Below, piece by piece: positions 2,250-62,828 of a DNA stretch of 64,000 bases. The position numbers and the translations under genes were made by a program. This DNA comes from a virus. Taxonomy: Duplodnaviria > Caudoviricetes. Where the stretch lies: the IMG/VR virus record IMGVR_UViG_3300031992_000028. The stretch is one strand, 5' to 3'. Each line of letters begins with the position of its first letter. Within the stretch, counting starts at the first letter, position 1. The notes beneath the pieces are model-generated. The model was not told where the DNA came from, made no database searches, and saw only the letters and a list, made by a program, of their open reading frames with translations.

Positions 2250-4039
2250 TGACTAAATTTAAGTTAAAAGAATACTCCAGATTTATGCTATCAGAAAAAT
2301 TTATTTTAAATGAAGCTAAATATACTAAAGCAGACATACAAAATATTATCTCAGAATATACAAAAGCAAATCAAGACTTTAAAAATATTTATTCTAGCAT
2401 AGAAGAAAAAATAAAGTCTGAGCTTGCAAAAGCGGAAGAGGCGACTGCAACTGATAAAGATGTAGAAGAATTAAATGAGTTAGCTGATAATATTACAAGT
2501 GGAAATATTACTAATATTACAGATGTTAAAGCAAAAACAAATCAATATCTTACAAAACTTGATGCACGACTCAAAGCTACTCCTGGTTATGATGAAGAAA
2601 AGACACCAAACATTGCTAAAGTAATAAATAAATTAAATAGCTATGCAAATGAAGCAAGTAGAGGTGCTAAAGAAGATGAGGAGACAGAAGATCGCATCAT
2701 TAATCTTATAAAAGAGCTTACTCCATTACTTAACAATATCTTTGCAAAAGATACATCAAAAAATACTCTTTTACAACAAATTATTGATAATCTTACTGTT
2801 TTAAATAATACTAACTTAGATGGTTTTATTAAACAGCTAAAAAGTGATGCTGTTGAAGAATTTATAAAAATAAAAGATGCTTTTACAGGCATTACACAAT
2901 ATTTAACAGAGCTTAATGCAAAAGAAACTATTACTGATGAAGATATTACTGCTCTAAATACTGCAGCAGCTGATGCAGCTAAAACTGTAACTGATAATAT
3001 TGAAAGAATAAAATCAATATTAGAATTAAGAGACGATGCCAAAGCAGCAAAACAAGACGCAGATGAAAATCATCTTGTAGATTTATTAAGAGATACTCAA
3101 AGTGACCCTGCTGCATTTAAAGAAGCTTTAATATCAATTCTTAATATTGCATTTAAAGATGACCAAGCTTTAGTTGAAGCAGCTTTAAAACTAAATGGCG
3201 ATGGCGCCATTGCAGAAGAAATTTTACACTTAGGTGCACTTCCAACAAAAAACCCATTTTTATATTTTATTTATACTAATAAGCAACTAATTACAGGTGG
3301 CAGCATAGATGCTAAAAAATATGCAGTTTTGCATAATAGATATATACAATCTAACGCCAACGATATTTTTGCAGCAGCAGACCTTAGGGGCACTGGACAA
3401 TTAAAAAATAGTGACGTAATTTTTAGTGAATCATTTTATCAATCTGGCACTTCAAACATGGAAAAATATCTTGATATAAGAGAGCAAGTTATGAAGTTAT
3501 TTGATAATAATACTCCATTTAAAAATCAAATTGTGGGTAAAAAATATGCAGGTAAAATTGAAAACTTTTTTAGTGATTTAGTTTATACCAGTGGCAAGTT
3601 ATTTGATAAAGCACAAGGCAGCACTGGAAGCTCTCTTACAAAAACAGTTAAAGATATTGCTCAAATTTCAAATGACCTTAAACGCTGTTTTGATGAAGAC
3701 GCTCTAAAGAGCACAGCAGCAACTGCAGTTATTTCTGTAGATAAAAAGATTGTTACACAGTGAGCTTCACAACTTGGTAACAATAAAGATAGACTTGCAA
3801 AATTAATCTTATTTATCGCTACTAAATACTTAAGCGCTAATGGCGATGCAAAAGCAGTTCAAGACACAATTAATAAATATGAAGAGATTAAAGGAAAATC
3901 TCTTGAAGCAGGTGATATTGTACCATTTACTAACCTAGTTGGTAAAGCTGATATTACTGACAAAAATATTGTAAATATTATTGAGTTAATTGCATCTGCT
4001 GGTGAATTTGTAGGAAGTAAATCAGAAGAGGAAAAATAA
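2249..4039 (+). CDS. Large helical virion protein, 596 aa, possible internal head protein
   Basis: One internal TGA (3761); ends TAA 4037. N-terminus MTKFKLKE...KFILNEA resembles T4-type capsid-targeting/cleavage leaders. Confidence 0.55.
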
Positions 4040-4393: not shown

Positions 4394-5074
4394 ATGGCAT
4401 TAAGATACTATGATGACGCTGTTATTAAAAAGTTATTACGCTGAATTCCTGAAAATCAGGGGTTACGTGTTTTAAAACCAGACGAATCAAAAAGACTTTT
4501 TGAAATAATTGCAGATGATACTGGCGATAAACCATTTAAACTTCCTTTTATTGCGCTTTCTAGAAATACAGATATTGAACTTTTATCAAATATTAAACAA
4601 AATAGATCTTTTGATGGTTTACGTTTAAATAATAATACTTATGACCCACAAACAGGCGGTTATAAGCTAGAAGATGGCTCGACAATATTATTTAATATTA
4701 TTCCAGTACTACCACAATATCAATTAGATATTTATACAAAAACAGAAGAAGAAGCTGATGAATTATTAAGAAATATCTTATTTAAATTAATTAATAACCC
4801 AGCTATTTATATTTCAATTCCGTACAATGGTAATAATATTATGCATATTGCAAATATAAGAGTATTACCAAATGTTTCAGATAATAGTGGAATAAATGAA
4901 CGAATTTTTTCTGGCCAATTTTATAGATGAACTTTACAACTTGAGATCCACGATGCATTTTTCTTCAGTGTTCCATATAAGCCTAACTGAAGAATTGGTG
5001 AAACAGCCCTCGAAGTATCTAGTAAAATTGATGCAGATGGCGAGATAGAGGAAGTATATAAGTTTGAAAAATAG
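4394..5074 (+). CDS. Tail terminator / sheath stabiliser (T4 gp15-like), 226 aa
   Basis: Open with 3 TGA=Trp; KLPFIALSR and IPVLPQYQLDIY motifs; immediately upstream of the sheath; absent from the code-11 track. Confidence 0.65.
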
Positions 5075-7735: not shown

Positions 7736-8506
7736 ATGGGAGAAGAAAGACAAACTAACTATACTGTTATGGAAGGCTACGAGCTTCCATCAAAAGGACT
7801 TATTTATGATAAGCCAGTTAATTCGCATGTCGAATTAAGAAGCATGAGTGCAAGAGATGAAATGAAACGTTTATCTCCAAGTACAACTCCATTTAAAACA
7901 CTCGCAGACATCATTGAAGGCTGTATGATTGAAAAACCAGCTGTTCATGTATATGATATGGCAATAGGTGATTATGAATATTTACTTCATAAGTTAAGAA
8001 TTGTTACTTATGGTGATGAATATAAAGTAGAATTACGCTGCCCATTCTGTGGTGAATTATTTGACTCAGTAACTCATCTTGATGAAATTACAGTTAAAGA
8101 ATTTGATAAAGAAAAATTTGAGACCCTTAGAAATTTACATTTACCAAAAAGTAATCATGATGTGGTTTTAAAATTTCAAACTCCACATATTTTAGACGAA
8201 ATTGATAGCAAAACTAGAGAATATAAGCGTCGTTATAAAGATGCCACAATTAGTTTTGACTTATTAGCAATTTTAATAAATTCTATTGAATCTGTTGATG
8301 GCATTGAAATGAATCAGCTTGACTTAGAAAACTTTATTAACAAGCTTCCAGCTTATGATATGACAAAGATTATCAATACTTTAGATGAATTAAATGCAAG
8401 TGTTGGTATTAATAATGAGCTACAAGTCGTCTGTCCACATTGTGGGGCTGACGTAGAAACCTTTTTTCGCTTCGGGACCGAGTTTTTTAGACCCTCAAAC
8501 ATCTAA
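7736..8506 (+). CDS. Baseplate hub / tail assembly chaperone (T4 gp26-like), 256 aa
   Basis: YELPSKG, CPFC/CPHC pairs, C-terminal GTEFFRP; lies between tube and tape measure. Confidence 0.75.
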   Translation: MGEERQTNYTVMEGYELPSKGLIYDKPVNSHVELRSMSARDEMKRLSPSTTPFKTLADIIEGCMIEKPAVHVYDMAIGDYEYLLHKLRIVTYGDEYKVELRCPFCGELFDSVTHLDEITVKEFDKEKFETLRNLHLPKSNHDVVLKFQTPHILDEIDSKTREYKRRYKDATISFDLLAILINSIESVDGIEMNQLDLENFINKLPAYDMTKIINTLDELNASVGINNELQVVCPHCGADVETFFRFGTEFFRPSNI

Positions 8507-8714
8507 AGATGGGAAACCTTACGGTCCTAAAAGATTTAAGGAAATCGTAAAAGAATGCTGATATATTAGCGATAACTTGCATACTAGTTATACTGATATA
8601 TTAGACTTAAGCTTTCAAGAAAGAGTATATCTAATTGAGCTTATAAATGAAAAACAAACCGCTACTAAGAAAGCAATGGAAGAAATACAAACAAAAAACA
8701 AACTTAAAAAATAA
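8487..8714 (+). CDS. Frameshift extension of the tail chaperone (G/GT-type; gp51-like)
   Basis: Startless +1-frame ORF (LDPQTSK...ECWYISDNLHTSYTDILDLSFQERVYLIELINEK) overlapping TTT TTT runs at the chaperone 3' end; contains TGA 8559. Confidence 0.6.
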
Positions 8715-8739
8715 TTAAATTATTAGGTGGGATTAGCTT

Positions 8740-10863
8740 ATGGCAATGACAAAAAAAGACTCGCACAACTATGAACAAGAATTCTTAGAAGCTAATGTTA
8801 AGTTAGCAAGCTATGAATTTGATCTTGAAAATAAGCTTTTTGAGCTTCGTCTTTCTAATGCTCAAAAATTAATTCAAGCAAAAGAAAATTATGAAAAAGC
8901 CGGCCTTGACAAAATTGCTAAGCTAAATCTTTTATATACCGATAAAGACGTAGAAGCAGCTAAAAAAGCTGCTAAAGCAAAAATAGAGCTTCAAATAAGA
9001 GAAGAAAGAAAAGCACAAGGTAAAAAGCCTACTGGTAAGCTAACAAAAGCTGAAAAAGATATAATTAAAGCGAAACAAGAAGCAGAAGAAAAAGCTATTG
9101 ATGCTCGTTATGAAAAAGAAAAGAAAATTGCTGCTAAAATTCATAAACAAGCACAAAAAGACATTGCAGCTGAGAATGCTGCTCGTGCTTCGAGTGAATT
9201 AAAATCTGGACTTTTTGGTAAGGGCAAATCATTAGCAGACAGAAAGCAAGCACTATATAATGCTTTTCATCAAAATAGTGATGGTTCAAAAAATACACTT
9301 GCTGGTCTTGCTACCTTGACAAATGCATTATCTGATTTAACTAAACAATTAGATAGTAAAATTGAATATATTGCTGGTAAAAAGAGTGCTATTGATACAA
9401 GATTACATGGCTGAGGTGGTAAGAGAAAACTTGGTTCATACTGAGATGCTATTAGCACTGATATTATTGGCGTTGCTGGCGCTTCTCCGTTTATTAAACA
9501 AACTGCTGTTATCTCAAATGTTGAGTCAATGGTTGATGCAGGTATTGCATATAATGTCGAACAACGTGCTTTTTTACAAACAATTAAAGATAAAATTGCA
9601 ACAACATTTGATGCCAATAATGGAACTCTTTTAAGATTGGTCCGTATTCAACAAGCTGATTCTACAGCTGCTCGTTTAGGTATGGAGTCAACAATGAACT
9701 CATTCTTAAATAATATGTATGAAAATACTGAGTATTTAAAAAATGTTGCAACATCAGTAAAAAGTAGCTTAGAAGAAGCTATGTCACTTATGAGTGCAAC
9801 TGAAGCTGTAAGTTTTGAATACCAAGTCCAAAAATGAATGGGCTCATTATATTCTGTTGGTATGTCTCAAGGTGCAGTAAATAATATTGCTGGCACTCTT
9901 GGTAAATTAGCAGCAGGCGATATTTCTGGTATTACTGGTGGTGGTGCTGGAAACTTGCTCGTTATGGCAGCAAATAAAGCAAACTTATCTTTAGCTGATA
10001 TGCTTGCAAATGGCTTAGATGATAGTGATACTAATAAATTATTAAATGCTATGACGGACTACCTTGCACAGATTGCAAATGATTCTAAAAATAGCCGTGT
10101 TGTTCAGCAACAAATTGCAAATGTTTATGGTTTAACCGCATCTGATTTAAGAGCTGCTCAAAACTTATCAAAGACAAGAGGAATTGTTGCTGGGTCTTCA
10201 CTTAGTTATAATGATGCATTAGCACAGCTAACAAGTATGGCAAGCACAATGTGGCTGAGAACAAGTATGGGTGAGATGATGACCAATGCTTGAGATAATC
10301 TACAATATACCATGGCTGGCGGTATTGCTAATAACCCACTTTTATACGGTATTTATAAAGCTGCTGGTTTATTAAATTCAGTTGCTGGTGGTATTGCTTT
10401 ACCTGATATTAAGGTTATGGGTTCAGGTGTTAACTTACAAACAACAGTAGCTGATTTAATGAATGTTGCGGCTTTGTCTGGCAGTATTCTACAGGGCCTT
10501 GGAACTATGATTGCTGCTGGTGGTGGCGGTGGTTTTTCTGGTGTTGGAATGCTAAAAGCTATGGGTATTTCAACAGTTTCTAAAGGTGGTTATACAACTA
10601 GACAAGGTGGAGGTGTATCAGAATCTGGCCTTGTTGGAAACTCTTCTAAAGATGATGCTTATAATCAAACTATGGCAGACGCCAATGATACACAAAAATC
10701 TACTATGGCAAATGCTAAGGAAGAGGAAGACCAAGACGTTCAAAATAAAGTTATAAATGAAAATGTTGTAAACATTTATAGATTATTACAAAGCCTTACT
10801 AATGGTACTGCATCTATTAATGTTAATACTGGTGCAGACCGACATAATGGTCTAGCATATTAG
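8740..10863 (+). CDS. Tape measure protein, 707 aa
   Basis: Four ORF fragments in one frame fuse via TGA; Ala/Gly/Lys-rich helical sequence; canonical position. Confidence 0.75.
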
Positions 10864-16319: not shown

Positions 16320-19300
16320 ATGATTACAGAAAAAGATTTAGAAATAGCAAGACTCTCTCCAACTAAGAAAGATTTTTATCAACTTTGGAATGAGCTTTTA
16401 GATACAGCTGGAAAAATCAGCGACCGCTGGGACCCAACATCTACAAATGAAAGTGATCCTGGTATTGTTTTACTCAAAGTTTTAACTGGTATTGCCGATA
16501 AATTAAATTATAATATTGATAAAAATATTCTTGAAGCATTTATGCCAAGTGCTACACAACAGGAGTCAATGAGAAAACTCTGCGAGCTTGTTGGCTATAA
16601 TATTAAATACTATCAATCAGCTGAAACTCAAGTTACTATTGGCTGGACTGGAAAAATAGATAATAGTAATTTTAAAGTAGAAGATGAGACTTTACCTATT
16701 ATTTATATTCCAATGTTTTCTAAAATTAAAGATAATGATGAAGAAATTATATATACAACTACAGAAGAGTGTCAAATTACCGGTAATATTCCAACAACCA
16801 AAGTTGCTTGCATTGAGGGCCAAGTTGTTCAATGTTCCCCAGATACTGATTATATTATCTCTCTTGACAATTTAGATGACAATAATAGATATTATTTGCC
16901 AGAAGCTCAAATTGCTGAAAATGGTCTTTTTATCTATACTGTTAATGATGGTAGTTATCTTAAAAATAAATGAACAAAAGTTGATAATTTAAATGCACAA
17001 GCTACAGGAAGCTTAGTCTATAAGTTTGGCTTCGATTCTCAAAATGGTTTACCGTATGTTCAATTCCCAGCAGATATTAGTGCTTTAATTGAAGACGGCC
17101 TTTATATTTGATATACACGTACTCTTGGGGTTAATGGAAATGTTTCAGCTAGAACTTTAGTTAATTTAGAAATTGCTGATTATGATGGTGCTCCAGAAAA
17201 TCTAGCAAGCTTTAAACCATATGTCAGTGTTAATAATGAAAATGCTGCTATGAATGGCACAAACATTGAGACTATTACACAAGCATATAATAACTTTAAA
17301 AAAACAGTTGGTACTTTTGATACATTAGTTACTTGTAGAGACTATATGAATAAAATATATCAATTATATGACGATATGAATATTCCATTAGTTTCTAATA
17401 TTATTGTTAGTGATATTCGTGATGATATTAACAAAGCCGTTACTCTTTGCACTTTTGACCAATATGGAATTAAGTATGCTGATACTAAGCTAACTACAGG
17501 AACTGGAACTGACAAAAAGGATCGAATTACAAACTTTGACCTTATTTTATACCCATTTACAACTGTATATGGCTTAAACAATAAAACAGAATATACTAAT
17601 TCATTTAAGTATTCGTCAGCTAATTTTGACGCTATTAAACGTGGTATTGCCACACTTAAAACTATTTCACACAACTTAGTGCTACCTGGTACAGACAGTA
17701 CTTCTATAGATGAAATTGTTTGCGTTAAAAATTATTTTAAAATTAATGCCAAAATTACTACTACAACAAAAGTAAATGCAATTGAAGAGGCGTATATTTT
17801 AGACAATATCTATAAAAATCTTTATAAAACTTTTAATATGCGTGAGCTTGATTTTGGTGAAAATATTCCATTTGATTCAATTCTAGAGTGTATAGAAGAG
17901 GCTGATACCAGAATTAAAAACGTATCTATGGAAGAGCCAGAGATAGAAACAAGAATTTGTCTAGCTAATAGTATTAATGATGAAATTAAAGTTACCGATA
18001 ATCGTTGAACTACATACTATTCAAAACTTATTGCAAGAAATATTTTAGCAGGAAAAATTGCATTATTAGACTATAATGAATCATTTAAACCTGAAATAAC
18101 TGAAGAAAACTATGGTGAAGGTTTAAACCCACAATATAATACAATAACTAAAATATCTCCAAAATGTGAAATTATATCTAGCGCAGCTGGTAAAATAAAT
18201 AGCACGCAGCTTTACAAAAATGAAATTGTTCAATTCAGAGCTCCTAATTTTAAGACAACTGTAACATACCCTGCCTATGTCAATTATTTTGCACATTTTA
18301 ACTCTTCTGATGACCAGACTAGTGGTGGACAAAATACACAAGATGCAGTAGCCGCCACAATGATGACATTAAAAACATTTATGGCATCACACTGGAGTGA
18401 ATTAGTTGGAGACCTTAGTGGCAAGGCTAATGCTGAGAAAAAAGCTTTAGTAAGCAAAGCTGTTACTTTAACTAATGTTACAAGTGACAATTTTAATGAG
18501 CTTAAAACTGCCTATGGCTGCTTATTTAATGGCTCCGGCACAGGTGATAATTTTAAATTTGATAGTATTGCTAGTGGCTATACACAAGGAGCAACTTACT
18601 ATTGTTTACCAGTTACTGAAAATAGTTTTATGCAATGGCATAATTATATAAAAAGTAGCCCACATTATAATGGTTTATATTGGCGTCTTAATATGGACTT
18701 ATCTAGACCTATAGGAAAACTTGTTGATGAAAGCCATTGAAAATATAGACTATCTCTACAACCACAAACTGTATTAGAAACACAGTCTTTAGATAAATAT
18801 TATATTCAAGATGTTACTGCTGACCCTGCTGGTACACCTGAGGCTGATAAGACATATGGTGTTGGCAGAGATGCATCTAATGTAAATGTAAAAAGTGGTG
18901 TAGAATATAAACTTCAAGATGGTGAATATATTTTAATTAATTATACCCAAGCTGCAGATGAAGCAAGTGGTAAAGCCGAAAAGATTATAAATGAAGTTTT
19001 AAAAGCAGGCGATATAATTAAGCCAAATTTTGACTTAGTTGATTCTGACAAGTGGGCTGAAACTCATACATATGCTAAAACAACTCAAGGAAGCTTTGGT
19101 CCATGACCAAACTATAATACTCCAGCTGGCATGTTTACACTTGGTCCTAATGAACAAATTGAGCAAAGAAAGCCTGTAAAAGTAGAGTTAAAGTCTGATT
19201 CTCTTAAAAATATTTATGTCTATTGGAATTTAAATAATGTAGAACAAAATCAAAAATTCCCAACAACTGGTAGTAATGGTTATACACTGCAAGATGGTGA

Positions 19301-36975: not shown

Positions 36976-37341
36976 ATGAAATGGGAACAATTTTTTACTA
37001 AATTTGCTGATGCTTTCAAAATTCCAGAGACATTAGATGAAGCGACTGAGTATATCAATCAAAATCCTGGTATACAGACATTTATTGAAGAAATGTCATT
37101 TAGACAGGTAGTTATTAATATTTTAGTTGCTGCAAATATTATTACAGAAAAAGATTTTAATAAATCTGTTGAGCATTTTAAAAAAGTATTTACAAAACAA
37201 TATGCTCAAGAATTACTTTCAAAAATTGAGGAATTCAAAGAAAGCTATGATTCAGACGAAGACTTATCTGATTTATTTGATGACCTTGATGAGGAAGACG
37301 ATACAGACGACCCAGATACCCCTCCTCACTATGATGCTTAA
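36976..37341 (+). CDS. Hypothetical protein with acidic tail, 121 aa (probably leaderless mRNA)
   Basis: TATAAT at 36962-36967, ATG 8 nt later, no SD. Confidence 0.7.
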   Translation: MKWEQFFTKFADAFKIPETLDEATEYINQNPGIQTFIEEMSFRQVVINILVAANIITEKDFNKSVEHFKKVFTKQYAQELLSKIEEFKESYDSDEDLSDLFDDLDEEDDTDDPDTPPHYDA

Positions 37342-41332: not shown

Positions 41333-41397
41333 TTAGCTTCTAAATTCTGGGGCTTAATAAAATAATAAAATATTAAAATATATTGTATAATATTATG

Positions 41398-41507
41398 TGA
41401 GTTGAAGAGCTCACAAGTTCATAGTAGCGCTAAGGTAAAACTTAGCAATCCTCCCTTCAACAGCAGCTTATCACAATTCCTCCTGGTATGTTGCTGTTTT
41501 TCTTTTT
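41398..41507 (+). ncRNA. Candidate small RNA with anti-SD (CCUCC) motifs
   Basis: TATAAT 41386-41391; stems tgtgag/ctcaca, gctaag/cttagc and terminator aacagcagc/gttgctgtt plus T-tract; no ORF. Confidence 0.55.
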
Positions 41508-41520
41508 GCTAAATTTAATG

Positions 41521-41572
41521 GTCGGTCAAATAGCGCCATCACCTTCGCCACAGCTAAGTTGACCGGCTTTTT
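41521..41572 (+). ncRNA. Candidate short hairpin RNA / terminator behind a late-promoter variant
   Basis: TGCTAAATTT at 41507; stem gtcggtcaa/ttgaccggc plus T-tract; loop CCATCACCTT. Confidence 0.4.
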
Positions 41573-41608
41573 TATTTTAACTGAGAAGCTACTGAGAAGT
41601 GTTTCATT

Positions 41609-50992: not shown

Positions 50993-51024
50993 AAGCCAGG
51001 ATAAAATTATATCTTGGCTTTTTT
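50993..51024 (+). terminator. Intrinsic terminator
   Basis: aagccaggat/atcttggctt plus T-tract. Confidence 0.75.
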
Positions 51025-51327: not shown

Positions 51328-51616
51328 AAAAGAAAAGCGACGACTCAGAGCCTGGATTTAAGAGAGAGGTGATGGCTCGTTGTGTGTCGTCGCCGGCTAA
51401 GAGGACATTGTGGGTGACCGGTTAGCCTTGAAAGGAGGTAATTGTCATAAGGGGATTTGACTCGCTAAACTGCCCGAAACCTAATGACTTGATTCTGTTT
51501 GTGATTCTGTTTAAATTACGTATCGTTAGTTTTTTTGACACTCTATTGATTACCTATCGTTATACGTATCGTCTGAGGCATTCCTTTTCATTATTGGCAG
51601 TTTTTCGGTTGCCTCA
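51328..51616 (-). ncRNA. Candidate ~290-nt minus-strand sRNA with several anti-SD loops
   Basis: Minus-strand TTGTATAAT (-10 at 51628-51623); stems ggctaa/ttagcc, gagcc/ggctc and terminator gcgacgac/gtcgtcgc with U-tract on the minus strand; only tiny ORFs. Confidence 0.6.
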
Positions 51617-51914
51617 TACTATATTATACAACTAAAAATTATTTTTTAACAACTTTTTTCAAATTTAGGCAATTTCAGCTTCACATGTGTGCGTGTGTGG
51701 CGGCGCGCCAGTATTCTTAAACGTTAGAAGAATACCGCGCGTGGCCATGTGCGTGCGTATACACCAAAGCTTTCAAACTAAGGCAATTTCAAATTGAGCT
51801 GATTTCAAACGCAGGTCGACTTTAGCTTATATATTTTTTTATTTAAATAAAATAAATATATAAGTTAAAAAGTGCTCAAAGTGGGTTAATTTGTAAAAAA
51901 AGTTAAAAAAACTA

Positions 51915-51954: not shown

Positions 51955-52116
51955 GGGGAGTGTTTTTTTATAAAAAAATAAAAAAGCCCTTAAATTAGCA
52001 TAGTTCAGGCTGTATAATATAATAGGGAATAAAATGAAATTGTTCCAATTTCATTTATGTGTGCGCAAGCACACACGTGTAATACTAAAAAAATTCATTA
52101 CTAAATCAGGGTGTTT

Positions 52117-54533: not shown

Positions 54534-54588
54534 AATATTGTTTACTTGTCATGCAAATCGCGTTATAATATTATAGAGAGGTAAAGTT

Positions 54589-55167
54589 ATGGGAAGAGAT
54601 ACATTAAAAGTTATGGGTGCTTCAAACCACTGTGATGAAGAACGTTCTAAGTTAGATTACTATGGAACTGACCCTCGTTCAACTAAAGCTTTATTAGCAG
54701 TAGAACAATTCGACCACGAAATTTGGGAACCATGTGCTGGACACCACTTAATGGTTAATACACTTATCGAAGCAGGATATCATGTGTTAGCTACTGACAT
54801 CGCAGAATATGATGGTGTTCAACATGCTAAGATGAATTTCCTAGACGTTGAAGGAAGTTGGGATGGAGATATCATTACTAACCCACCATATGGACTATCA
54901 ACTGAATTTGCAGTTAAAGCATTAGAGTTGGTAAAACCTGGACATAAAGTTGCGATGTTCCTACGAACCTTATTCTTAGAAGGAACAAAGAGATATGAGA
55001 AACTCTTTAAGGAAAACCCACCAAAAACTGTTTATGTCTTCACAAATCGTCAGGTGTCTGATAAGAATGATGACTTCAACAAAGGTTCAGCAGTTAGTTA
55101 TTCCTGGTTTGTCTGGGAAAAAGGTTATACTGGACCAACACAAATAAAGTGGATAAGTTCTAAGTAA
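54589..55167 (+). CDS. Amino (N6-adenine-type) DNA methyltransferase, 192 aa
   Basis: WEPCAG (motif I) and IITNPPY (motif IV). Confidence 0.85.
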   Translation: MGRDTLKVMGASNHCDEERSKLDYYGTDPRSTKALLAVEQFDHEIWEPCAGHHLMVNTLIEAGYHVLATDIAEYDGVQHAKMNFLDVEGSWDGDIITNPPYGLSTEFAVKALELVKPGHKVAMFLRTLFLEGTKRYEKLFKENPPKTVYVFTNRQVSDKNDDFNKGSAVSYSWFVWEKGYTGPTQIKWISSK

Positions 55168-56743: not shown

Positions 56744-56794
56744 ATTTACTTTTTTTCAAAAACATGTTATAATAATAGTAGAGAGGTGAGAGAT

Positions 56795-57211
56795 ATGAAA
56801 GATAAAGAATTAGCAAAACAAGAATATCTTGAAATGATCAAGCAGTCCTGGACTTGGGCTAAACTTACAGAAGAGGAAAGAGAAAAGTTTTCTGAGCTAT
56901 TGGAACATCCTTGTTCAGCAGTAGTCATTAAAGGAAACTACGAACAACGTTGGGAAGCATGCGAAGCTTTATACCACACTTACTTAGAAGGGCTTGGATA
57001 TGACCCACTTGAGTGGAGAGAAGCTCAACCAACTGTTTCTACATTCTATGAGTTAAACTATAAGACTCATGGCGAACCAGTGCCACCACTTCAAATAACA
57101 AATGAAGTTCAAGCAAAGCGTTTGGCAAAAGCAGCAACCATTATGAATGGAAATACAAATGTTTCATTAACTAAAGTTGATTTAGTTACTACAAAAGTGA
57201 GGTTAGACTAA
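56795..57211 (+). CDS. Hypothetical early protein, 138 aa
   Basis: AGAGAGGTG RBS. Confidence 0.7.
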   Translation: MKDKELAKQEYLEMIKQSWTWAKLTEEEREKFSELLEHPCSAVVIKGNYEQRWEACEALYHTYLEGLGYDPLEWREAQPTVSTFYELNYKTHGEPVPPLQITNEVQAKRLAKAATIMNGNTNVSLTKVDLVTTKVRLD

Positions 57212-57744: not shown

Positions 57745-57829
57745 TAAAAAATTAAGTAAATTGTGTAAAAACAGTTTACTTTTTTTCATATTTGTGATAT
57801 AATAATAGTATAAGAGAGGTAATTAAAAT

Positions 57830-58345: not shown

Positions 58346-58437
58346 TTCTTATAAAAATTTAAGTAAATTCTTCAAAAAAGGGTTTACTTTTTTATTAAAA
58401 TATGTTATAATTATAATAGAGAGAGGTTAAGAGAACT

Positions 58438-59461: not shown

Positions 59462-59531
59462 AAATTAAAAAAGCCGTTTACAAATGCGGCTTTTTATGTT
59501 ATAATATTAATAGAGAGTTGAGGTAATTACT

Positions 59532-59981
59532 ATGAATAAAAAGAATATTGTTACAAAAGAAAACATTGCTAAAGTTGCTGGTTGGTTAAAGACAGCTTGT
59601 GATGACTTTGCAAATAATGATGCAAGCGGTTGCTATAATTTCCCACTATCTGATGACTTAGTATTGGCAGTTGGCTGGTCTGATGGTTATGACATGGCTG
59701 ATACTGATATTATCAAATCTAAAGAAGGTCAAAGACAACATGGTTCTTGGGTTTGTGGTTGGGCAGTAAATGCGGCAGTTAAAGTTAGAAATGACTTCGA
59801 TTGTGCTGACTTCGATATGTTAAACTATCCTTGCTATAATGATGGTGAATGCTGGGACAGTGGAATTTCCATGAAACCAAATCAAACTCGTAGAGAGTAT
59901 CGTAGAGACGCTCGTTGGTTCTTAGAAACATTTGTGTCTATGACAAATGCTCACAAGAGAGGTGAAATTAGTTATGAGTAA
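59532..59981 (+). CDS. Hypothetical early protein, 149 aa
   Basis: GAGGT RBS and own promoter. Confidence 0.75.
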   Translation: MNKKNIVTKENIAKVAGWLKTACDDFANNDASGCYNFPLSDDLVLAVGWSDGYDMADTDIIKSKEGQRQHGSWVCGWAVNAAVKVRNDFDCADFDMLNYPCYNDGECWDSGISMKPNQTRREYRRDARWFLETFVSMTNAHKRGEISYE

Positions 59982-60741: not shown

Positions 60742-60797
60742 ACTATTTACATTTTCTATTTTTCGTGTTATAATATATTTGAAGAGAGGTAAGAAGT

Positions 60798-61882: not shown

Positions 61883-61910
61883 CTATCGGTATCGAAAGGA
61901 GGAAGTTGCT

Positions 61911-62828
61911 GTGGCAAGTCAAACATTTAACAACTTCAAGAATTACGCAAATCAATTAGAGAAAGAACTTGGTATTAAATATGATGCTAAGCCTTATAAA
62001 GATACTATCAGGGTTATGCTTGATGGTTTTTGCAAAGCAATGGATGAAGGCGATGAACATCTTAAGAACTTATATATCAGTGGTTTAATCTTACGTCATT
62101 GGGATAAAGTAAAGAAACTTGCAGATAGTTGCCCTGGCATCGATCTTAAAGGCGAAGAGTTCGTCGACTGGGTTTACGAAGCAATTATGCTTGCTTGTGA
62201 ATATCGTAAATGGCAAAAAGACGAAAGTGTCAATGCTCAACAATGTATCAATCAATGTATTGAAACTATCAGGGTTAGACACTACTATGAATATAACTTA
62301 GACAAACACAAAGCGAACTACAATACTGTCTCTTTAGAAACCCCTGTTGGCGATGGAGACGATAATGGTGTTCAAAAAACTTTGATGGATACTATGCATG
62401 ATGAGAATGCGGAAGAAGCTGCTAGAGTAGCAGAAAGTAATAACGCTGCTCGACACATCGTTCAGATGTTTATCAACAAAAACAGAATTGTCGAAGCAAT
62501 TATCATGGACATCATTGCTTTTGGTGATACTGAAAAAATTACTAAACACATTAAACGTGGCATTGACGAAAATGGTGAGGCTTACAAGTATATAACTTAC
62601 ACACGTGAGTTCTGGAAGTTCAAAGCAGTCCAACTTCTTTCAAACTTGCCAGAAGACTACCAACAATACTTCCTTGAAAACTATTTAGTTAATACAGCAG
62701 CATTAGATGCAGCTTTAAACGTGCTTAGAAAGGCCAATAACAACAAATTATACCGTGAGTTAGATAAAAGCCTATCTGCAGCAAAAGTAATCCTACAAGC
62801 GTCTATGTGAGCTGAAAATAATAATTAA
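61911..62828 (+). CDS. Sigma-factor-like transcription regulator, 299 aa (305 aa if TGA 62808 is Trp)
   Basis: GAAAGGAGG RBS with GTG; region-2-like LILRHW...EEFVDWVYEAIMLA and region-3.2-like VSLETPVGDGDD..TLMD. Confidence 0.55.

Follow-up and report, generated by a model that had tools for sequence, protein, structure and literature searches.

A predicted minus-strand RNA with open anti-Shine-Dalgarno motifs in a TGA-recoded phage and its candidate early targets

Does a tailed phage encode an RNA that distinguishes messenger RNAs by their ribosome-binding sites (RBSs)? The question is raised by a non-coding locus within a window of 64 kb, the whole stretch of DNA analysed here, which is taken from a 137.6-kb contig of an AT-rich tailed phage. 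The passage from early to late gene expression in phages is for the most part attributed to transcription factors and nucleases. In the window, reading TGA as tryptophan increased the coding cover of the plus strand from 0.74 to 0.92, and a reading of TAG as glutamine was dropped. TGA codons are concentrated in the structural genes of the window, a pattern also described for recoded gut phages (10.1101/2021.08.26.457843). Three promoter classes were recognized: early promoters (TTTACW-17-TATAAT), class II promoters (YGTATAAT, mostly without the early-type −35 TTTACW) and late promoters (TTGCTAAATT). Metagenome names suggest the rumen and the pig gut as the source of the relatives, while a Bacillota host is suggested by the phage's promoters, its Shine-Dalgarno (SD) sites and its best helicase matches. 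The helicase relatives among cultured phages are at most 37% identical, the best ones originating from Bacillota phages, and no DNA match to a cultured phage was found. Within the 64-kb window, no tRNA gene was detected and no terminase identified.

The locus is situated in a repeat-rich non-coding hub of 1.3 kb. It is bounded by a terminator (50993-51020) and by a Zn-ribbon/helicase gene pair, which opens the early island. A non-coding RNA of about 290 nt is predicted on the minus strand (51328..51617). Its promoter (51623..51652, minus strand) is of the class II type and comprises the −10 box TATAAT (51628-51623) preceded by YG, a weak −35 box TTGTTA, an 18-nt spacer and an upstream A-tract. 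The −10 box occupies the same place in all 11 homologs. The U-tract lies at 51328-51336. The coordinates given in the original prediction, among them those of the two motifs treated below (51430-51442 and 51359-51373), proved correct; the first of these motifs is placed here at 51430-51443. The likely start is at 51617, one base off the position proposed. The fold z-score against shuffled sequences was −2.4 for the minus strand, whereas the plus strand gave +0.4. Across the homologs, neither strand has a conserved ORF, which argues against a small protein-coding gene; a leaderless peptide at the RNA start was likewise rejected, as no frame is conserved. Searches for tRNA and tmRNA revealed neither a cloverleaf nor a tmRNA fold in the RNA, and a suppressor for the code switch was discarded accordingly. 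Rfam contained no family matching at gathering score, only chance-level matches to other families.

Several other elements of the hub and its borders were observed. At 52011-52060 (plus strand), a class II promoter precedes a palindrome that recurs in several relatives and has no ORF; it is possibly an operator or an origin element. The Zn-ribbon and helicase genes (52348 and 52680, plus strand) have TGA near the N-terminus in several relatives despite their place at the edge of the early island, and their RBSs have the hub repeat GATTTCA in common. In L002, a TGA-containing gene (3221-3934, plus strand), by eye similar to GIY-YIG homing endonucleases, forms an insertion at the hub's left edge. 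L007 harbors three tRNA genes directly downstream of the helicase (8504-8905, plus strand).

Homologous loci were collected via the neighbouring helicase. Ten relatives carry the RNA unit at this site and on this strand (L033, L030, L015, L002, L034, L043, L038, L040, L007 and, as a partial copy, L005). The homologs are 48-78% identical to the RNA, and the family ranges from about 230 to 300 nt. A stem and a U-tract terminate every full-length copy, and the U-tract is kept in 9/9 full-length relatives. The L007 homolog was missed by the covariance model and was assigned from position and architecture only. At this site, the RNA is not found in L008, L010, L012, L013, L014, L031/G011 and L044. 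Its presence follows the helicase tree, from which the out-of-frame L015 row was left out, with one change (weak support). Motif scans of IMG/VR returned only L002 besides ordinary RBSs, and a scan of 185,579 genomes for the pattern of the 5' end returned chance matches only; the RNA was found in phage contigs alone. The ten relatives with a same-site unit and the compensatory changes in the stems bear out the prediction of a structured RNA gene on the minus strand, and judged from the sequences this RNA is very probably real. We infer that it is transcribed. A scan of the window found no other minus-strand unit, as had been claimed, but the RNA is not the only one of its kind: a second anti-SD RNA is predicted on the plus strand (41397-41505). 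Further structured units were seen in relatives. L038 carries a second GC-rich minus-strand unit (4730-5003) with its own −10 box, a U-tract and an open UUUACCUCCCC, without a match in Rfam. L044, which lacks the main RNA, has three tandem structured units, each running from a class II promoter to a terminator, and a GC-rich element (16530-17300, plus strand, and 18450-18900); Rfam gave no match for these either.

The location in a repeat-rich hub would also suit a DNA element for replication or for the terminus, or a plus-strand leader with real SD sites, and no RNA would then be made from the minus strand. Read on the plus strand, the motifs are indeed perfect SD sequences, and in some relatives this strand also folds well. 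However, neither a start codon nor an ORF is kept 3' of these motifs, and the terminator at 50993-51020 ends the gene upstream of the hub. The strand is assigned to minus because the −10 box, the U-tract, the G.U pairs and the cUUCGg loops all indicate it. A reading without a minus-strand RNA is therefore regarded as very improbable.

The fold of the RNA begins with the 5' hairpin P1 (51574..51616, minus strand; arms 51610-51616 and 51574-51580), which is present in 11/11 homologs. It shows a double change in L038 and G.U pairs in L015, L034, L043 and L040. The P1 loop contains one arm of a further helix (51596..51603), and the other arm (51467-51474) is located in the loop of hairpin P4 (51444..51488, minus strand; arms 51480-51488 and 51444-51452). 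This helix, which was missing from the original prediction, comprises 6-9 bp in 10/11 homologs, with double changes in L030, L038, L043 and L007 and shuffle probabilities of 0.005-0.044 in 8/10 sequences tested. As one arm lies in the P1 loop and the other in the P4 loop, the helix represents either a loop-loop pseudoknot or alternative folds which are both under selection. A variable middle domain (51489..51573, minus strand) carries 1-4 GAUA repeats, which are found in this domain in 10/11 homologs. In total, 28 copies were counted in 10 RNAs versus 5.9 expected, a post hoc count on homologs that are not independent. No pairing partner of the repeats was found; pairing with the leader of a sigma-like gene was rejected, the matching letters occurring only in this genome.

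Directly after P4 follows a linker (51430..51443, minus strand), predicted to be single-stranded, which contains the anti-SD core, with the motif CCUCCUUU in 11/11 homologs. It is identical over 10 nt to the Bacillota 16S tail, as taken from a genome, and is the sole 10-nt match to this tail on both strands of the 64 kb. The linker reads UUACC where the 16S rRNA has UCACC. Part of the linker is paired in the nested minimum-energy fold (probability of being unpaired 0.59). The covarying pseudoknotted fold gives an openness of 0.69 here, 0.69-0.96 in nine relatives and 0.46 in L038. The pairing of the 5' end with the linker in the minimum-energy fold was ruled out, as it is impossible in L038 and L007 while P1 covaries.

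The terminator supplies the second motif. Its stem P6 and the U-tract (51328..51393, minus strand) show double changes in 7/13 pairs, a covariation reached in 0/500 shuffles and in none of the slid controls, which were 34-48% paired; the fold z-score is −4.7. The terminator loop (51353..51373, minus strand) is predicted to be open (P 1.0) and complementary to AGAGAGGT. Its motif ACCUCUCU is kept in 7/10 full-length RNAs, altered in L034 and L040, and absent in L007. Three unpaired anti-RBS loops had been proposed. The linker and the terminator loop are conserved, whereas the middle loop AUGUCCUCUU is partly stem and occurs in this genome only; its place is taken in most relatives by a UUCG hairpin or by a short loop. 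It belongs to hairpin P5 (51395..51427, minus strand), whose loop with AUGUCCUC is specific to this genome. In L033, L015, L034 and L043 the hairpin carries cUUCGg, and L038 and L040 lack it. The middle loop was thus rejected as a third functional site, being neither conserved nor biased towards early genes. Additional C-rich anti-SD copies occur in L005, L015, L030 and L040; two such regions are conserved.

The identity with the 16S tail, the compact pseudoknot and the unexplained GAUA repeats would fit a protein decoy as well. Such an RNA would mimic the 16S tail and bind a ribosomal or initiation protein (bS21, bS1), or serve as a sink for a host nuclease, and the repeats would offer additional protein sites. 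The anti-SD is contacted by bS21 (PMC9723584). Against a decoy, the motif is not preceded by a helix-45-like stem, the terminator loop runs on as CUCUCU unlike the 16S rRNA, and bS21 was not found in a relative of 64% completeness. The linker differs from the 16S rRNA towards the consensus of the early RBSs: GAGGT is followed by AA in 34/57 pooled early leaders and by GA in 6/57, to which AT bias could contribute, and the UUACC of the linker is able to pair with GGUAA as well as with GGUGA. This counts as one point for pairing over protein mimicry, and the decoy is considered quite improbable. Action of the RNA through SD pairing is, on these predictions, likely.

The candidate targets were sought among the RBSs of the phage. 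On the plus strand, AGAGAGGT occurs at the RNA locus and in six early RBSs, and nowhere else in the window. Five of these had been named before (54575, 56780, 57813, 58420 and 60783), with pairing over 8-10 nt to the terminator loop, and were confirmed as listed; a sixth at 59956 had been missed. Pairing is predicted with the RBSs of a DNA methyltransferase gene at 54589 (54575..54582) and of the genes at 56795 (56780..56789, best net pairing of −17.4), 57830 (57813..57820), 58438 (58418..58427), 59974 (59956..59965) and 60798 (60783..60790), all on the plus strand. The early RBS of gene 59532 (59520..59528, plus strand) is a candidate target of the linker.

For a comparison of early and late genes, 26 early and 30 late annotated starts (56 in total) were used, the choice of starts being made by hand. 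GAGGT occurs in 13/26 early versus 2/30 late RBSs (p = 0.0003), AGAGAGGT in 6/26 versus 0/30. A second phage has GAGGT in 1/24 late-region starts. Net pairing, calculated for the better motif of the RNA and including the cost of opening the target, has a median of −8.8 kcal/mol for early and −6.4 kcal/mol for late sites (p = 0.004). A value of −10 kcal/mol is reached by 35% of the early versus 10% of the late sites, and the six best net targets among the 56 starts are all early. The predicted preference for early RBSs was thus borne out. A clean sparing of late genes was not: the late RBSs 1740 and 4394 nonetheless reach pairing values of −11.5 to −11.8. Stronger SDs account for some of the early bias, since a plain 16S tail likewise favours early RBSs (p = 0.046). 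All predicted pairings between the RNA and RBSs span only 8-14 bp.

Across phages, the co-change of the loop with the own early RBSs is weak and depends on one phage, with p values of 0.017-0.25 when L040 was included and of 0.29-0.51 when it was left out; in L040 the phage shifted to GAGGA sites and the loop lost ACC, which represents a single event. AGAGAGG RBSs are also found in L031 and L096, two relatives in which this site lacks the RNA. Leaderless genes were observed at 36976, 49403, 49891 and 55219 (plus strand), behind class I and class II promoters alike; they would evade any anti-SD RNA.

The RNA might alternatively act as a broad SD blocker, in which a copy of the 16S tail occludes the canonical sites of the host and frees ribosomes, the match to early RBSs being secondary. 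The invariant part of the RNA is indeed a generic 16S-tail complement, and no annotated phage RBS in the window contains AGGAGGT. The companion RNA A, described below, would contribute motifs for GGAGGA sites. Host sites were represented by 40 starts from four proxy Bacillota genomes, not from the real host. The linker pairs with these proxy sites no better than with late phage sites (−9.4 versus −8.9, p = 0.18, n = 40), and a host shut-off exceeding the effect on late genes, as originally proposed, was not borne out with the proxies. The terminator loop favours early phage RBSs over those of the proxies (p = 0.005), and AGAGAGG, to which it fits, is found in 0/40 proxy starts. An RNA of a few hundred bases would moreover need great abundance for such a task. 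A general blocker is accordingly judged unlikely.

The companion RNA A (41384..41505, plus strand; RNA 41397-41505) is a predicted anti-SD RNA of about 110 nt behind a class II promoter, with UCCUCC-type motifs in a linker and in a terminator loop and a fold z-score of −4.4. Conserved copies occur in L034, L042 and L043, where compensatory changes affect the 5' hairpin. In L031/G011 the RNA has been relocated to the early region; its stems there are new and its motifs unchanged, which suggests an action in trans. Early and late genes are not distinguished by RNA A, which matches best to GGAGGA sites, among them those of the late genes 12396 and 10876 and of the sigma-like gene; its pairing with the RBSs of 12396 and 10876 is kept, and no double change was seen there. 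Downstream of RNA A, a late promoter precedes a 60-nt terminator hairpin (41506-41582, plus strand; RNA B, 41520-41575). RNA B was discarded as an anti-SD RNA, as its loop differs in L043, where the stem is kept, and as it is absent in L042.

The timing of the RNA may be linked to gene 61911-62828 (plus strand). The predicted fold of its product matches almost exclusively sigma factors, weakly (best E 0.014), and the product is conserved in hundreds of proteins, none with a Pfam or PHROG match. On the structure model, it is probably a divergent factor of the sigma-70 family, and class II promoters may depend on it. Genes behind class II promoters contain 0 TGA and 10 TGG codons, those behind late promoters 51 TGA and 30 TGG. 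Judged from this codon usage, synthesis of the RNA probably precedes the TGA code switch. Among the raw matches of the linker, the RBS of the sigma-like gene (61894..61908, plus strand) ranks first. Part of this site is folded, and target structure weakens the pairing. Beyond the SD, the extended match lacks significance (p = 0.057 here and 0.40 in L034), hence the gene is a lead only as a target and was rejected as the sole one.

The same match would suit a brake on superinfection or for a carrier state. The targets would be those given above, with the RNA made from the outset or continuously and delaying the lytic onset. The c4 RNA of P1, which holds back the ant mRNA, provides a precedent (PMC12197685). 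The RNA would be transcribed out of the non-coding hub, pointing away from the early island, and in L038 its promoter carries an early-type −35. Conversely, L038 and L039 show a weak match to the sigma RBS, c4-type RNAs pair with a single specific target rather than with an RBS class, and a tyrosine integrase was not found in three partial relatives, whose records are incomplete. Such a brake is considered rather improbable.

The reading preferred here is a phage-encoded RNA working in trans in the manner of LhrC from Listeria. A scaffold of P1, P4, the loop-loop pseudoknot and the terminator would display two CU-rich motifs in an open state. These would pair with AG-rich RBSs and block the loading of 30S subunits. 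Favoured targets would be early phage mRNAs whose short leaders fold weakly and carry GAGGU-type sites, and their translation would be damped as the infection goes on. Strong host sites would probably be affected, too. Against this explanation, conservation is highest in the linker, which is a generic copy of the 16S tail, and L007 lacks the motif in the terminator loop. Multi-site damping of early phage mRNAs before the code switch is given an even chance, and the odds are equally balanced that early phage mRNAs are the main targets during infection. Pairing and repression in vivo, a timing ahead of the TGA switch and a dependence on the sigma-like protein would all belong to this model. The complete switch of the original prediction, with early and host genes off and late genes spared, appears doubtful. 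An extended version seems equally unlikely: the sigma-like protein would turn on two anti-SD RNAs tuned to RBS classes (GAGGU, and GGAGGA for RNA A), which would silence early, sigma and host mRNAs while late sites mostly escape, forming a second translational switch beside the TGA switch.

Were the preferred reading true, a viral RNA that tells mRNAs apart by the class of their RBSs would add a new layer of control in a phage which already gates its late genes through stop-codon recoding. The fold has support from covariation, and the family allows exact and cheap reporter tests. It is an unnamed, phage-borne and covarying RNA family with predicted open anti-SD motifs, and a limited literature search yielded no description of a phage RNA of this kind. 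The phage itself resembles TGA-recoded gut phages of the Agate/Jade type in its code 4 and in the TGA codons of structural genes (10.1101/2021.08.26.457843); the 137.6-kb contig and the relatives from ruminant and pig gut add to the likeness. With membership of the Agate clade, only code 4 and size are consistent. The accessible part of that study mentions no such RNA. PreS (LPR1) of phage lambda, found via Hfq-based RIL-seq, enhances the translation of the host gene dnaN (10.1101/2024.10.31.621285). Like PreS, which acts in the lytic cycle, the present RNA would be a base-pairing small RNA encoded by a phage; in contrast to PreS, repression by SD occlusion in a probable Bacillota host is predicted here. 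The c4 antisense RNA of P1 and P7 belongs to an immunity region and has the ant mRNA as specific target (PMC12197685). It is a phage RNA which acts in trans by means of loop-displayed sequences near a phage RBS, as is also predicted here. Unlike c4 with its one target, the present RNA matches an RBS class, and c4 models gave no match to it.

RoxS/RsaE of Bacillota binds SDs with single-stranded C-rich regions and blocks initiation on many mRNAs (PMC5419742). Several such regions, two of them conserved, are predicted here as well. The present RNA differs in being viral, its best predicted targets being the early genes of the virus itself; sequence and covariance-model searches revealed no similarity to RsaE/RoxS, and no chromosomal locus was found besides the phage contigs. 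LhrC of Listeria monocytogenes binds AG-rich SDs with motifs in a loop, a linker and the terminator loop (PMC8079631). The covariance model of the LhrC family gave no match at gathering score, and by sequence the RNA is a member of neither the LhrC nor the RoxS family. In common with LhrC are several CU-rich motifs, predicted here to be open in the linker and the terminator loop, the proposed pairing with AG-rich SDs and the presence of sibling RNAs within one genome, here RNA A. In contrast to LhrC, the RNA is phage-encoded, has 230-300 nt and contains a covarying loop-loop pseudoknot, and in place of UCCC its motifs are the longer 16S-tail-like strings CCUCCUUU and ACCUCUCU.
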